Shown: positions 1-13,886, numbered from the stretch's first letter. The stretch: 52,470 bases of DNA from an uncultured Candidatus Saccharibacteria bacterium (GCA_964601125.1 CAZRKB010000002.1:1-52470); one strand, 5' to 3'. Program-made: numbers and translations. The notes: generated from the sequence alone by a model not told the origin.

Positions 1-61
1 CAGTTGGTAGAGCACCCCCATGGTAAGGGGGAGGTCATCGGTTCAATCCCGATCAACGGCT
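1..61 (+). tRNA. tRNA-Thr (anticodon GGT), 5' part cut by the window edge. CCA is encoded at 62-64.
   Basis: Anticodon stem ccccc/ggggg (15-19/27-31) with loop atGGTaa. T arm atcgg-ttcaatc-ccgat (37-53). Acceptor 3' strand caacggc (54-60), discriminator t61. Confidence 0.85.
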
Positions 62-1550
62 CCAAAATCAAACTTAGCGGTTTTTCAGAGGCGGAAATTC
101 GCGCGGCGCGGAGCGCCGCGTATGGAGAAATGGCGTTTCCGCGCGCTTCGCGCGCGTGGAGCGAGAGGTTCAATCCGAAAATTTTTTGGAGGAAGGATTT
201 TTTTAAAAGGAGGTCTTCCGATTCCGCGATTTTTCCGAGTGTCAAAGCGTCTGCAATCCAGTTGCGGACAGGTTCAACCCAAGCGGCAGGGGCTCGTTCA
301 AGACGGACGATATTTTCTTCAATCGTCCGGCGCTCGCTTGCAAGAGCGCGACGGCGTGACAAGTAATCCTCACGCTCCAAATCTTCAGCGACATATAAAT
401 CTGTCAGGCGCGATATTTTGCGAGAAATATCTTCGCACTTGTCACGCAGTTCTTGGACGGCTCCTGCCGCTGTTTGAGAGGCGCTGGCCGCCTCTTTTTC
501 AAGCAATGCGGAAAATGGAGAAATCCATTCTTGCGGCATAAAATATTCTGAAAGAAGCGTCGAGAGTTGCGAGTCCAAAAACTCGCTTCGCACCGGCGCT
601 TCTTTGCATTTGGCCGCTTTGTTTTTGCGAGTACAACGATAATATGTGTAGTGGTGAACGTTGCCATTTTTCTGATGTTTCTCTTTTACTTCAGCTGTAA
701 TACCCATACCGCAAAAACCACAGCGCAAAAGTCCGCAATACGGCGCCGGATCGGTTTTGATGGAAACTGGCCGGCCGCGTCCGCGCAAAACCGCATTGGC
801 TTTATCAAAAAGAGATTTTGAAATTAGAGGAGTGTGCGTACCTTCGTAAATTTCTCCGGCATATCGGAATTGACCGTAGTAAAATGGATTTTGCAAAATG
901 AAAGAGATGCGCGAAATATGAACTCGATGATTTCTTTTGGACATCACACCCGAATTTTCAAGAAAAAGTGTGAGCTGATCCAGCGTAAATTTTCCGCTCG
1001 AATATTTTTCAAATATTTCGCGCACAAGCGCGGCGTTTTTCTTGTGAACTTTTATAGTTTTTGTACTCGGATCATTTATATATCCAATTGGCGCAAGTGC
1101 TGGATAAATTCCTTGCCGCGCTTTTTGTCTTAAACCGCGAGCAGTATTTGCAGAAAGTTGGCGGATATATTCATTTGCCATGCCGAGCTCAACGGACATC
1201 ATGAGAACATTGTCATTGGGATAATGCGAGCGGTCGTGCGTTTGAATATGTCTGATTACATTTTGCTGGAGAAGCCATTGTATTTGTCCGCCGTCTACCG
1301 GATTTCTCGCCAAGCGATCAATTTTCCAACAGATAATTCCTTGTGCTTCGCCGCGCTGAATACGAGAAACCATTTCATTAAATATGGGACGGCCAGGCTG
1401 CTTGGCACTTTTCTTTTCAACGAACTCCTCAACAATTTCCAACTCGTTTCTGTGTGCGAGCACGCGAAGTTCGGCAAGCTGAGCTTCAATACTCAAAACT
1501 TGCTTGTCTTCAACATCAGTGCTTTTGCGAGCGTATAAAAAATATTTCAT
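1..1550 (-). CDS. Large serine recombinase (resolvase catalytic domain + recombinase domain + zinc beta-ribbon + coiled coil). The 3' end is open at the window edge. Not in the supplied ORF track.
   Basis: Manual minus-strand translation from ATG (1550-1548) gives MKYFLYARKSTDVEDKQVLSIEAQLAEL...GIICWKIDRLARNPVDG...LSANTARGLRQKARQG...YCGLLRCGFCGMGITAEVKEKHQKNGNVHHYTYYRCTRKNKAAKC... The frame has no stop down to position 1 (516 codons). The YxRxST catalytic-Ser motif and the CxxC..C zinc ribbon are typical of large serine recombinases. Confidence 0.9.
   Translation of the reverse strand, partial: MKYFLYARKSTDVEDKQVLSIEAQLAELRVLAHRNELEIVEEFVEKKSAKQPGRPIFNEMVSRIQRGEAQGIICWKIDRLARNPVDGGQIQWLLQQNVIRHIQTHDRSHYPNDNVLMMSVELGMANEYIRQLSANTARGLRQKARQGIYPALAPIGYINDPSTKTIKVHKKNAALVREIFEKYSSGKFTLDQLTLFLENSGVMSKRNHRVHISRISFILQNPFYYGQFRYAGEIYEGTHTPLISKSLFDKANAVLRGRGRPVSIKTDPAPYCGLLRCGFCGMGITAEVKEKHQKNGNVHHYTYYRCTRKNKAAKCKEAPVRSEFLDSQLSTLLSEYFMPQEWISPFSALLEKEAASASQTAAGAVQELRDKCEDISRKISRLTDLYVAEDLEREDYLSRRRALASERRTIEENIVRLERAPAAWVEPVRNWIADALTLGKIAESEDLLLKKSFLQKIFGLNLSLHAREARGNAISPYAALRAARISASEKPLSLILEPLIGIEPMTSPLPWGCSTN
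60..165. repeat. IR-A copy 1: 106-bp perfect inverted repeat, partner 1793-1898. Degenerate similarity continues to about 222.
   Basis: Base-by-base comparison shows 60-165 equals the reverse complement of 1793-1898. It covers the last acceptor base, discriminator and CCA of tRNA-Thr(GGT) and the 3' coding end of the recombinase. Confidence 0.95.
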
Positions 1551-1790
1551 ATAACTTAAATGGCCATCCTTGGTGCACTCAACCCAACAAGTTGGATTGT
1601 CCAAAGACGGCCATTAAAAAACTTGTTGGAAAGTTGAGTGCGCATCCATTATACATCAAAAGAAAATTTTGTTGCAAATATTTTTAGGGAGTTTTTGTGT
1701 GTGCGCACGGGTGGGCGGGGCAAACACACATAAATTTGCAGACCTCCTAAAAATCCTTCCTCCAAAAATTTCGGATCTGTATTTTCCTGA

Positions 1791-1943
1791 ACCTCGCTCC
1801 ACGCGCGCGAAGCGCGCGGAAACGCCATTTCTCCATACGCGGCGCTCCGCGCCGCGCGAATTTCCGCCTCTGAAAAACCGCTAAGTTTGATTTTGGAGTC
1901 TCTATTGTACTCCGCTCGAACCTATTTTTCCACTGAAATCTAG
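1791..1943 (+). pseudogene. Orphan 3' fragment of a serine recombinase gene (about 50 codons, ...HAREARGNAISPYAALRAARISASEKPLSLILESLLYSARTYFSTEI*).
   Basis: In the recombinase frame the IR-A copy 2 reading is preceded by an in-frame TGA (1788-1790) and ends at TAG 1941-1943. There is no N-terminal part upstream. Confidence 0.5.
1793..1898. repeat. IR-A copy 2 (inverted).
   Basis: Reverse complement is identical to 60-165. It abuts IR-B and overlaps it by GAG (1896-1898). Confidence 0.95.
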
Positions 1944-2130
1944 CGCACGCTCCGCGCGCGTGGTGGCTTTGTATTCTTGCGTACGCTCGACGCAAAGTGC
2001 TAACTCTGAAAGAAGAATTCCGCTTAGCTCGCTCCGCTCGCTCTGCCCCTCGCTTCCGTCCGCCCGAATTCCTCTCTTTCTTTTTGGCGGGGTGTTATGA
2101 AATGGATGAGGAGGCGGATGGAAGCGAGGG
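1896..2130. repeat. IR-B copy 1: 235-bp perfect inverted repeat, partner 12658-12892.
   Basis: Checked base by base against the reverse complement of 12658-12892. GC-rich. The inner end folds as an 18-bp hairpin (2047-2064 / 2113-2130). Confidence 0.95.
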
Positions 2131-11342: not shown

Positions 11343-12059
11343 ATGCCAGACGAAAATACACAACCCGCTCCTGAACCAGTCCAAACCGAATCAACCCCGA
11401 CACAACCGGAAACTCCAATTTCCGAACCGAACCCCGTAAAGCTCGATTCTCTCGCCACGGGGCAAGACCCTGCTTCAGTGAGCTCGCAAGGGCCCATGGA
11501 ACCTGCCCCTGTTCAGCCAGCACCCTCTGACACTTCCGAAATGCCCCCTGGTCCAGTAGAAGCCCCATCAAGCCCCGAAGAAGCCACTCCAGTCAAAGAT
11601 GCTAATTCCGCAAATGAGCCGTTCCCCGTAAAAGACGAGGTGCCCTCGTCTCACGGGGCAAGCGAACCAGCTCCTGCCCCTGAGCCGTTAGAAAAGCCTG
11701 GGATTACGATTGAAAGACACGGAACAGACACGACAATAACAGAAGATATGCAGCCAAAATCCGAAACGGCTCAGTTGCCACCAAATGAGCCGATCGATCT
11801 AGCGGAAGAAATAAAGACAAAACAAAGAGAAGAAAATCTAAAACTTGCCAACGAAACCAGACAAGAAAAGAAACGAGAGAAGATAGATAAAATTTTGGAA
11901 ATGTTTTCTGAGCAAACAGAAATTACAAACGACGAAGTAGAAAAACTCCTTCATGTCTCTGACGCAACCGCGACAAGATATTTGGAACAGCTAGAAAAAG
12001 AAAACAAAATCAGACAAGTTGGTAAAACTGGTAAAGGCGTAAAATACGAAAGAATCTAA
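11343..12059 (+). CDS. Protein with a Pro/Glu/Ser-rich disordered N-terminus and a C-terminal winged helix-turn-helix.
   Basis: C-terminus ITNDEVEKLLHVSDATATRYLEQLEKENKIRQVGKTGKGVKYERI resembles a DeoR/MarR-type wHTH. Confidence 0.65.
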   Translation: MPDENTQPAPEPVQTESTPTQPETPISEPNPVKLDSLATGQDPASVSSQGPMEPAPVQPAPSDTSEMPPGPVEAPSSPEEATPVKDANSANEPFPVKDEVPSSHGASEPAPAPEPLEKPGITIERHGTDTTITEDMQPKSETAQLPPNEPIDLAEEIKTKQREENLKLANETRQEKKREKIDKILEMFSEQTEITNDEVEKLLHVSDATATRYLEQLEKENKIRQVGKTGKGVKYERI

Positions 12060-12089
12060 TTTTGAATTTGATTTTTTGTTTTTCTTTTT

Positions 12090-12560
12090 TGGGAGCTCTC
12101 CGTACACGCGAATGGGTCGGGTGGGTCAAGTGTACATGTCTGAGTCCTCGGGCATTTCCGCTATGGCAGGATCGGATATGAGCGCCGTCGCCAGCCGAAG
12201 CGATGCGGGAAAAAAGCGAAAGCGACACTGTGAACACAAGAATGAAATGGAGGAGTGGGGTTGTGCGAGGGTGGACTCCGAAGGCACAAACAATGTGTCG
12301 CAAAACTCTACAAAAAGATGAATAAAACAAAGCACTACAAAATCTAAACCATCTCTGCGAGGAGGAGCCCGAAGCTGGGGAGAGGAACCTTCCTCTCCCC
12401 AAAAGGAGCGGTGCCCGAGCCAGCGCCGAGCACGGCGCGGTGGCGAGGAAAAGCACCGCACGAAGCAATCTAGGCGCGAGTAGCCATAGCGGAAATGCCC
12501 GAGGACGGATGTCCGAGGGTGGAGCTTCCAGCCTGCCAAAAATATGAGTATGCCAGAGGC
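12090..12560. ncRNA. Candidate large structured RNA of unknown class. The region is GC-rich and non-coding-looking, and lies inside the element next to IR-B copy 2.
   Basis: 24-bp long-range helix 12144-12167 / 12483-12506. Hairpins 12377-12400 (10 bp) and 12419-12444 (10 bp with a 2-nt bulge), enclosed by 12408-12414 / 12453-12459. Helix 12102-12107 / 12130-12135. A hand count of 12401-12460 gives 42/60 G+C. Only Arg/Ser/Pro-rich, mutually overlapping ORFs are present. Confidence 0.4.
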
Positions 12561-12657
12561 ACCATTTCTTTTTTCTTCTGTCTTTTCCCAAACGGCTCAT
12601 TTCCTGCCATTTGAGCCGTTTGGAATTCCGCTTGCTTCTTCCTTAGAAGAATCCTGC

Positions 12658-12892
12658 CCCTCGCTTCCATCCGCCTCCTCATCCATTTCATAACACCCCG
12701 CCAAAAAGAAAGAGAGGAATTCGGGCGGACGGAAGCGAGGGGCAGAGCGAGCGGAGCGAGCTAAGCGGAATTCTTCTTTCAGAGTTAGCACTTTGCGTCG
12801 AGCGTACGCAAGAATACAAAGCCACCACGCGCGCGGAGCGTGCGCTAGATTTCAGTGGAAAAATAGGTTCGAGCGGAGTACAATAGAGACTC
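12658..12892. repeat. IR-B copy 2 (inverted). It ends 14 nt upstream of tRNA-Thr(CGT).
   Basis: Reverse complement is identical to 1896-2130. Confidence 0.95.
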
Positions 12893-12906
12893 AAGAAAGA
12901 AATTGT

Positions 12907-12979
12907 GCCGATGTAGCTCAATTGGTAGAGCAATGGTATCGTAAACCATAGGTTGTCGGTTCAATCCCGACCATCGGCT
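12907..12979 (+). tRNA. tRNA-Thr (anticodon CGT).
   Basis: Cloverleaf by hand: acceptor gccgatg/catcggc, D arm gctc-aattggta-gagc, anticodon stem atggt/accat with loop atCGTaa, T arm gtcgg-ttcaatc-ccgac, discriminator t. Confidence 0.9.
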
Positions 12980-12980
12980 C

Positions 12981-13886
12981 ATGAATAAAAAGAGAACAGA
13001 GAATAAAATAAAAAAAGTGATTATACCTGTGGCGGGCTTGGGCACCAGGTTTTTGCCTGCGACTAAAGCTCAGCCCAAAGAAATGTTGCCAATCATCGAT
13101 AAACCGGTGATCCAATTTCTAGTGGAAGAAGCGGCTGCGGCAGGGTTTACTGATGTTATTTTTGTGACCGGTCGAGGCAAGAGAGCGATCGAAGATCATT
13201 TTGACTTTGCACCTGAGATCGAGAGCGCCCTTCTTTCAAACAACAAATCAGAAACTTTCGAAAAAGTGCGGGCTATATCAAAACTTGCCAGATTTTCTTA
13301 TGTTAGGCAAAACGAGCCCAAGGGTGATGGAGATGCAATACTTTGTGCTAGACATTTGGTGGCTAAAGATGAGGCTGTGGGTGTTTTGTTTGGAGATGAT
13401 ATTGTGGAGGGAAGCATTTCTCCTCTAGAGCAAATAGCGAGTGTTTTTCGTAAGGTTAATGCTCCTGTTATCGCTCTAGATCGAGTATCAAAAGAAGAGG
13501 TTTCTAAATTTGGAGTAGTGAAAGTAAAAAAGGTTGGGGAAAATTTGTACGAAATAGTAGATTTAGTTGAAAAACCAAATGTCCAAGATGCACCTTCGGA
13601 TATTGTTGTGGCCGGCAAGTACATACTTACCCCCGAAGTTTTTGACGAGCTTGAAAATTTAAAGGAAAAATCTAGAGGTGGCGAGCTTAGGCTTTCAGAA
13701 GCTCTCAAAAATATTCTAAAAGAAAAGAAAATTTATGGCACTCTGATAGACGGGGTCAGGTATGATTGTGGTAGCAAACTAGGATTTCTCAAAGCTACAG
13801 TGGACTTTGCTCTCAAGCACGATGAAGTCAAAGAAGACTTTAAACAATACCTGTTAGACGTGGCAAAAAAAATAAATGGAGAATAA
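12981..13886 (+). CDS. galU: UTP--glucose-1-phosphate uridylyltransferase.
   Basis: VIIPVAGLGTRFLPATKAQPKEMLPIIDKPVIQ and VEKP motifs typical of GalU. The ATG lies 1 nt after the tRNA 3' end. Confidence 0.85.
   Translation: MNKKRTENKIKKVIIPVAGLGTRFLPATKAQPKEMLPIIDKPVIQFLVEEAAAAGFTDVIFVTGRGKRAIEDHFDFAPEIESALLSNNKSETFEKVRAISKLARFSYVRQNEPKGDGDAILCARHLVAKDEAVGVLFGDDIVEGSISPLEQIASVFRKVNAPVIALDRVSKEEVSKFGVVKVKKVGENLYEIVDLVEKPNVQDAPSDIVVAGKYILTPEVFDELENLKEKSRGGELRLSEALKNILKEKKIYGTLIDGVRYDCGSKLGFLKATVDFALKHDEVKEDFKQYLLDVAKKINGE

Follow-up and report, generated by a model that had tools for sequence, protein, structure and literature searches.

A candidate gene for a large structured RNA at the cargo end of serine-recombinase islands in CPR bacteria

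The window that we analysed, a 52,470-nucleotide stretch of DNA, carries at the tail of the cargo of an island from the ultra-small CPR/Patescibacteria what is probably the gene for a large structured non-coding RNA of ∼450-600 bases, encoded on the plus strand and representing an uncatalogued family. The parts of this reading differ in strength. We are close to certain that the element is a real, conserved, folded single-stranded entity; it is very likely to function as RNA rather than as DNA, and we hold with equally good confidence that plus is the functional strand, whereas we see about an even chance that it is an ornate RNA acting in trans rather than a purely cis-acting element. An earlier note, made from the sequence alone, had proposed that the region specifies an RNA belonging to the recombinase element in which it lies, and the comparative data presented here support an element-encoded RNA at the cargo 3' end of a serine-recombinase island.

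The island takes up the first 12.9 kb of the window and consists of a tRNA-Thr 3' end, a recombinase gene on the minus strand and a cargo flanked by 245-bp repeats, the cargo in this case being a holin-like protein, two giant surface proteins and a winged helix-turn-helix (wHTH) protein, and then the RNA. The features that define it are as follows.

3-1604, minus strand: large serine recombinase with Pfam Resolvase, Recombinase and Zn_ribbon_recom domains
60-165 and 1793-1898: 106-bp perfect inverted repeat flanking the recombinase gene
1886-2130, minus strand: left copy of the 245-bp inverted repeat, separating the recombinase gene from the cargo
11343-12059, plus strand: last cargo gene (238 aa), with a Pro-rich disordered N-terminal part and a C-terminal wHTH
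12060-12906: intergenic gap of 847 nt between the 238-aa gene (plus strand) and tRNA-Thr(CGT)
12658-12902, plus strand: right arm of the 245-bp inverted repeat, just 3' of the RNA
12856-12884: outward promoter-like site TGGAAA-17-TACAAT in the right arm
12907-12980, plus strand: tRNA-Thr(CGT), the first host gene past the island

The placement given in the earlier note, between the cargo and one arm of the element, agrees with this map, the region sitting at the cargo 3' end on the inner side of the 245-bp right arm. At all loci the RNA occupies the same position, at the 3' end of a variable cargo and just before the right inverted repeat. The recurrent order in other genomes is inverted repeat, 4-10 kb of varied cargo, RNA and repeat, with a recombinase and tRNA beyond the left repeat; a conserved version of the right repeat lies downstream of the RNA in at least 35 loci, its inverted partner is found 4-7 kb upstream in 7, and a tRNA follows on the same strand, 200-850 nt downstream, in about 9. 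The cargo itself varies by locus and includes restriction-modification genes, methyltransferases, sigma/anti-sigma pairs and a DGR-type reverse transcriptase, the latter seen at L088 and three other loci as a ∼360-aa protein with the DGR-type motif LGNLTSQ, encoded ∼250-1900 nt upstream of the RNA. No phage genes were seen in the carrier islands. Many contigs run on past the RNA for no more than a few hundred bases, which is the outcome to be expected of a repeat at which assemblies break.

Several further observations concern the architecture of the islands. At ∼1886-1898 the reverse complement reads as the end of the 245-bp repeat, followed by CTC and the start of the 106-bp repeat, which matches the junction expected of an excised circle, so that the integrated island holds a full inverted copy of its own attachment region; this copy sits between the recombinase gene and the cargo. 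If transcription of the recombinase gene started from the outward promoter-like site in the left repeat, the 5' leader of the mRNA would be perfectly complementary, over 106 nt, to the 3' end of its coding region. A (GA)10 microsatellite lies at 2213-2232, between the left repeat and the first cargo gene. At another locus, L130, an opposite-strand recombinase follows the RNA and the repeat (+703 to +2310 past the RNA) with no tRNA detected between them, an arrangement that could represent tandem islands or a circle-type junction.

The RNA itself falls in a stretch (12090-12657) that had been singled out as GC-rich, and its G+C content is indeed 0.539 compared with 0.417 for the whole window; a recount of 12401-12460 returns the same 42 of 60 G+C positions as the original hand count. 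All five helices described in the earlier note are present, one of them longer than first drawn, and fall into a larger structure whose elements are listed here with the Watson-Crick pairing found in the window.

12102-12135, plus strand: P0 hairpin, an optional module with a conserved G-rich loop GGG..GGG.GGG (stem 12102-12107/12130-12135, 6/6 paired)
12144-12167, plus strand: 5' strand of P1, the 22-24-bp closing helix, pairing with 12483-12506 (24/24 Watson-Crick)
12182-12186 (GCGCC) and 12473-12477, plus strand: P2, nearly invariant, with 99.6% of cells paired
12216-12223, plus strand: mini-hairpin GC-GAAA/GGAA-GC with a GNRA-type loop, from the alignment
12265-12286 and 12356-12375, plus strand: P3, an interrupted long-range helix, mostly invariant and with little covariation
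12376-12401, plus strand: P4, a homopurine/homopyrimidine hairpin TGGGGAGAGGAA / TTCCTCTCCCCA, from the alignment (12377-12386/12391-12400, 10/10 paired, extending to 12376-12387/12390-12401)
12408-12414 and 12453-12459, plus strand: P5a, enclosing P5b (7/7 paired)
12419-12428 and 12433-12444, plus strand: P5b, with a 2-nt bulge (12419-12422/12441-12444 and 12423-12428/12433-12438)
12483-12506, plus strand: 3' strand of P1, pairing with 12144-12167
12545-12580, plus strand: 3' tail bearing a GAGGCAC motif that is conserved and a T-run confined to this subfamily
12633-12652, plus strand: H7 hairpin TTCTTC-CTTA-GAAGAA, beyond the T-run

P1 encloses a domain of roughly 315 nt, and by a rough estimate a perfect 24-bp inverted repeat would arise within 570 nt with a chance of ∼1e-9, far beyond random expectation. 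Comparison of the folding energy with shuffled controls, a check that the earlier note had put forward, gave minimum free energy z-scores of -4.6 for the plus strand and -4.0 for the minus strand, with none of 100 shuffles as low. That note had described a structured region of ∼470 nt; the fold stands, and it is the extent that needs revision, as the unit passes the long helix to at least 12537 and probably reaches ∼12652. Compensated variants of H7, read directly from the alignment of relatives, suggest that the folded unit continues past 12580. The RNA core is probably 12144-12537, with optional modules extending from 12102 to ∼12652.

Covariation among relatives, which the earlier note had also named as a test, is strong. 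The element is present in 19 of 101 related genomes (18 of 100 by BLAST, plus the genome from which the window comes). In an alignment of 12 sequences RNAalifold recovered 72 pairs, 27 of them with compensatory double changes, and when the alignment was enlarged to 50 sequences 95.4% of the cells of a 77-pair structure were paired, with 39 of the 77 pairs (346 cells) changed on both sides. The covariation score of 0.240 compares with 0.096 for shuffled alignments, none of 500 of which reached it, and with 0.03-0.06 when the partners were slid; a ranking by mutual information, which uses no energies, puts the same helices on top. The strongest covariation of the family is that of P5a and P5b. 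In the same 50 sequences, P4 pairs in 99.8% of cells with double changes at 7 of its 11 pairs, all 4 stem pairs of P0 have changed on both sides, and P1, almost invariant in sequence, pairs in 94.7% of cells and has 8 pairs with double changes. Long unpaired stretches are invariant over 50 of 50 aligned sequences. The loop of P3 (12287-12355) is variable and A-rich and is wholly missing in some members.

The genome that carries the window (636 kb in 33 contigs) holds two copies of the element, the second being a paralogue on contig 10 with 72% identity, in which both arms of the long helix keep their sequence and changes in the inner hairpins are compensated. P0 is missing from this paralogue, and other members have an extra inserted hairpin. 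A lone P0 hairpin with a G-rich loop is found after a 239-aa ORF on contig 29 (1240-1287; locus L004 of genome G000), close to the recombinase of a second island. P0 may be a separate module able to stand alone.

The wider family was collected with a conserved 20-mer, which located 88 loci in public contigs (one genome per species), 86 of which a profile search recognized as full or partial homologues. The hosts, as labelled, are mostly CPR bacteria of the Paceibacteria type (Kaiser-, Taylor-, Zambryski-, Nomura- and Adlerbacteria, among others), and a few homologues come from other CPR groups or from bins labelled non-CPR. Carriers among the related genomes often have 2-4 copies, often near contig ends. 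An even sample of 400 genomes of the phylum, searched with reduced sensitivity, gave one further match only, so the family appears concentrated in the order to which the window belongs and sporadic elsewhere. Sequence and fold are conserved over about 100 loci. Carriage by phages or plasmids was rejected, since the element has no match in IMG/VR, among GenBank phages or among the PLSDB plasmids. One homologue (L016; genome G008, contig 24) contains two N-masked stretches, the first beginning directly after the 5' strand of P1 and the second spanning the upper part of its 3' strand.

We considered whether the stretch might be something other than a functional RNA. As previously described, it contains overlapping ORFs only (two on the minus strand, of 196 and 137 aa, and one of 81 aa on the plus strand); these have no Pfam match at E ≤ 1, and in the alignment of relatives 1-nt indels within nucleotide-conserved blocks disrupt every reading frame, so that a protein-coding remnant was rejected. 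Nor does any database match mark the stretch as the decayed high-GC coding fragment that the earlier note had set against its own proposal. Rfam 15 at the gathering score matched only the tRNA and nothing on the GC-rich stretch, and a cmscan of 11900-13000 on both strands at E ≤ 10 returned only chance matches of microRNA hairpins to a neighbouring hairpin (12654-12745). The element is not the RNase P RNA or the tmRNA of its genome, both of which are located elsewhere (contig 2, 63724-64015, 91.5 bits, and contig 1, 75664-76082, 104 bits, respectively). Group II introns, HEARO/omega RNAs and bridge RNAs were rejected because no Rfam model matches the element; the reverse transcriptase, IscB/TnpB and IS110 transposase families are absent from the 25 largest clusters of neighbouring ORFs (by locus number). 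A retron msr-msd was rejected as well, given that the window contains no reverse transcriptase and that the DGR-type enzyme lies upstream in only 4 loci, as cargo. A full-text search of the published literature found no description of the RNA family, which most likely belongs to no existing RNA catalogue.

The combined alternative, that the stretch is a MITE, the remains of a gene or a catalogued RNA family that the models failed to recognize, can appeal to the 24-bp perfect arms, which resemble terminal inverted repeats and are nearly invariant, and to a multi-copy, patchy occurrence in contigs that often break just past the element. However, the interior is conserved as much as the arms and is rich in compensated helices, and the copies are confined to the same place at the island tails and never dispersed, on which grounds a MITE was rejected. 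With no Pfam match, no Rfam family match to the element even at E ≤ 10, and the RNase P RNA and tmRNA placed elsewhere in the genome, this alternative is already largely refuted, and we give it almost no credence.

Beyond its nested helices the element has three features of higher order, which involve the following segments.

12166-12181, plus strand: 5' strand of the pseudoknot, just inside P1
12250-12260, plus strand: R1, a purine tract mirroring the 5' (purine) arm of P4
12498-12519, plus strand: Palt, an alternative hairpin CCC-GA-GG / CC-GA-GGG with tandem G.A pairs, sharing 12498-12506 with the base of P1
12524-12537, plus strand: 3' strand of the pseudoknot, outside P1

Support for the pseudoknot comes from duplexes computed for each sequence and compared with shuffles, the MAFFT alignment being unable to register the variable bulges for a pair count; these duplexes have a mean energy of -20.9 kcal/mol and a mean z-score of -4.1, and at least 10 differently compensated variants were seen. 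In Palt, 12498-12506 pairs alternatively with 12511-12519 in competition with the base of P1. The pair 12498:12519 is CG in 29 sequences and TA in 21, and 12500:12517 is CG in 45 and TA in 4; position 12498 covaries with both 12152 and 12519, and 12500 likewise with both its partners, the evidence for Palt amounting to ∼3 independent events, each compensated in both helices.

The purine tract R1 follows P4 in mirrored form with 93% identity in register, as against 40-59% when shifted, and the variable layers are G.G-C or A.A-T. Seven haplotypes of P4 are mirrored by R1 among 80 distinct copies, and none of 20000 haplotype-level shuffles reached the observed mirror identity; a tree-aware test of the same relationship was not significant, there being too few well-supported contrasts. 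If R1 were instead paired antiparallel with the 3' arm of P4 by Watson-Crick rules, 22 G:T and 16 A:C cells would result, and this alternative was rejected. The geometry, with a third strand antiparallel to the purine strand of the duplex, is that of a purine-motif triple helix, and from the sequence comparison we suggest R1 as a candidate third strand on P4. RNA strands reportedly form such helices poorly. Pairing between the R1 region and the loop of a downstream repeat hairpin, which matches at 13 of 14 positions here, was rejected as not general (mean z-score of +0.18 over 48 loci).

The choice of strand rests on several lines. The dominant ORF in the upstream 500 nt has the orientation of the RNA in 60 of 69 loci, at a median gap of 28.5 nt, and in 38 of 50 sequences the pseudoknot is more stable when read as the plus strand. 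It is also only on this strand that the GAAA/GGAA loop, the unpaired A-rich regions and the tandem G.A pairs can be understood. The G:U content of minimum free energy folds was uninformative as a test of strand. In the 77 main pairs G:U makes up 0.8% of cells (31 cells) compared with 18 cells of A:C, whereas in the stems of tRNAs from these genomes G:U reaches 6.5% and A:C is absent. Rarity of G:U, nearly symmetric with A:C, is the pattern expected under a constraint at the level of DNA or of both strands; either the helices must be perfect duplexes, as substrates of double-strand-specific proteins for example, or the constraint acts on the DNA.

Such a pattern is what would be expected if the functional form were a folded single-stranded DNA, serving as a single-strand origin or as a recombination or uptake site, its helices being almost purely Watson-Crick and G:T about as rare as A:C where the RNAs of the same genomes differ. 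The mirror repeat would also suit a purine-motif triplex, a structure best known for DNA, and the mini-hairpin fits d(GCGAAAGC), a known stable DNA motif. We nevertheless consider a DNA form very unlikely. The islands contain no conserved rolling-circle replication protein or relaxase, and the strict co-orientation with, and abutment on, the cargo genes are expected of a transcript and not of a DNA site; moreover, the pseudoknot contains 4.3% G:U and prefers the plus strand, and swaps of hairpin modules and a dispensable A-rich loop are typical of RNAs.

For the RNA that we favour, the mechanism can be sketched as follows. It would be transcribed as the 3' end of the cargo operon with no promoter of its own; a scan of 12060-12140, from the upstream stop codon to P1, found no promoter-like site, so the RNA is most likely the 3' end of the cargo transcript. 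The long, G:U-free P1 would clamp the core and perhaps double as a processing stem, like the flanking stems of ribosomal RNA precursors, and the core would be locked by the pseudoknot and, perhaps, by the purine triple helix. The resulting stable RNA would then act in trans on behalf of the island through its many invariant unpaired bases, possibly as a multimer or with a protein, which in one subfamily would be the upstream wHTH protein bound to a AACGGCUCA hairpin.

A purely cis-acting role is the main competitor for the same transcript. The element would then be a 3' module of the cargo message whose very stable fold blocks exonucleases and keeps transcription of the cargo from running on into the outward promoter, the attachment site or the tRNA gene of the host or, once the circle is excised, from reading antisense into the recombinase gene. 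In favour of this, the RNA always abuts the last cargo ORF on the same strand and seems to have no promoter of its own; the repeat with its outward promoter-like site lies directly downstream, and in this subfamily a T-run follows the fold. For this task, however, one hairpin would suffice, whereas the element has ∼80 conserved pairs and, besides these, a pseudoknot, a mirrored tract and dozens of unpaired positions that do not vary. Furthermore, the T-run is missing from most family members, and a scan for plus-strand terminators found no site at the 3' tail of the RNA. We regard this reading as unlikely, if a serious one.

The company that the RNA keeps raises the separate question of the island recombinase, for which it might act as a guide, a directionality factor or a sensor of excision. 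The RNA occurs with islands of this recombinase family and beside the attachment-site repeat, the small islands have no evident protein directionality factor, and Palt at the 3' end of P1 could serve as a switch. Yet the recombinase family is found in 61 of 101 genomes and the RNA in 19 of 101, and 10 related genomes in which the RNA could not be detected encode recombinases of at least 45% identity, which argues that it is not an obligatory cofactor; an obligatory link was accordingly rejected. Nor has the RNA any complementarity of 11 nt or more with the junction or attachment regions, and guide-like pairing with the island ends or the tRNA was rejected, the longest exact matches being 10 nt and at chance level. 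To our knowledge, serine integrases work without RNA. A role as recombinase cofactor or regulator is in our judgement quite improbable.

A protein connection of a different kind is seen in the subfamily to which the window belongs. The 238-aa protein has weak Pfam HTH matches (FaeA, HTH_24 and DeoR), and in 18 of 86 loci a wHTH homologue precedes the RNA in the same orientation. Downstream of the 3' tail an inverted-repeat search located a further module.

12588-12623, plus strand: hairpin module CCAAACGGCTCA-N12-TGAGCCGTTTGG

This module is 100% identical over 30 nt in other genera, and among loci with the HTH gene 9 of ∼15 have it within the RNA or close by, compared with ∼2 of 60 loci that lack the gene. 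In wHTH-bearing loci the module AACGGCTCA-N12-TGAGCCGTT tends to occur inside the gene, after the RNA or in place of P5b, the last being the case in 4 members, where P5b is replaced by the AACGGCTCA hairpin module. This distribution hints at a protein-hairpin pair in the wHTH subfamily, as far as sequence can tell. The wHTH gene in the window has an internal copy of the AACGGCTCA/TGAGCCG hairpin at ∼11765-11795. A conserved hairpin AACGGCTCA...TGAGCCGAT in the gene encodes the conserved residues TAQ...NEPI, so a constraint on the nucleic acid seems to shape the sequence of the wHTH protein.

Few bacterial non-coding RNAs of more than 300 nt have no assigned function, and OLE, ROOL, GOLLD, raiA and HEARO have each taught something about RNA structure or biology. 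With the present family they are joined by a large RNA of the CPR bacteria, a group that has received little study; it goes with a defined type of mobile island, whose cargo includes surface proteins and restriction-modification systems among other genes. Among the points added here are three structural ones, namely the pseudoknot, the alternative hairpin and the mirrored purine tract, together with the deficit of G:U, the link between hairpin and wHTH gene and the test of the recombinase link. Compact and highly conserved, the RNA has tertiary features that invite testing (the pseudoknot, the helix switch and perhaps a triple helix of purines) and is a good target for cryo-EM and chemical probing, and it is a ready marker of island ends in fragmented metagenome assemblies. 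A bolder version, which we put forward as a long shot, is that the RNA supplies the only conserved backbone function of these CPR islands not provided by a protein. It would be self-assembling or catalytic, with a ten-layer purine (G.G-C / A.A-U) triple helix and possibly a molecule-bridging pseudoknot, and would take a direct part in the life cycle of the island, for example in transfer, maintenance or the control of excision, instead of passively ending a transcript.

Partial likenesses to several known systems help to place the element. The attC sites of integrons are 60-140 nt long, poorly conserved in sequence and used as single-stranded DNA by a tyrosine recombinase; like them the element is folded, conserved in structure and situated at the 3' end of swappable cargo, but it is ∼450 nt long, highly conserved in sequence and present once per island, together with a serine recombinase. 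In triple-helix RNAs (the MALAT1/PAN ENE, telomerase RNA and the SAM-II riboswitch) the triples are U.A-U or C+.G-C. The element resembles them in that covariation with a helix points to the third strand, and differs in its candidate pattern of G.G-C / A.A-U, in which this strand runs antiparallel to the purines of the duplex; we know of no long G.G-C / A.A-U stack in a natural RNA. In ribosomal RNA precursors distant flanks form a long perfect helix around a folded domain, giving the processing stems that are substrates of RNase III. The long perfect helix of the element likewise encloses a whole folded domain, probably as part of a longer transcript, and might be cleaved in a similar way. 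The pseudoknot, however, links the inside of the helix to the sequence beyond it, an arrangement not expected if the domain were simply cut out.

The closest known kinds are the OLE, ROOL and GOLLD RNAs, and the element is a member of none of them, the covariance model of each giving no match up to E = 10 to either strand of 11900-13000. Like OLE with its Oap partners, it is a large conserved RNA, and some members of the family have a gene for a small protein next to it (the wHTH gene with its hairpin module); unlike OLE, it has this gene in only about a fifth of its loci and belongs to a different phylum and a different genomic setting. ROOL and GOLLD are, like the element, several hundred nucleotides long with many helices and pseudoknots, borne by mobile DNA and provided with a variable or disordered internal loop, and in all of them protein partner and function are both undescribed. 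ROOL and GOLLD are encoded by phages or prophages, often close to tRNA genes; of the loci of the present family about 9 have a tRNA downstream, and their islands show no phage genes. The element stands apart from them in residing on serine-recombinase islands of CPR bacteria, with no matches in phage collections, in being closed by a long sequence-invariant helix and in having a mirrored purine tract. In ROOL, cryo-EM assigned to the quaternary structure a kissing loop that covariation had earlier identified as a tertiary interaction, and in GOLLD a contact detected by covariation proved to be an intermolecular bridge (PMC12286853). By analogy, the pseudoknot of the element could likewise join one molecule to another.
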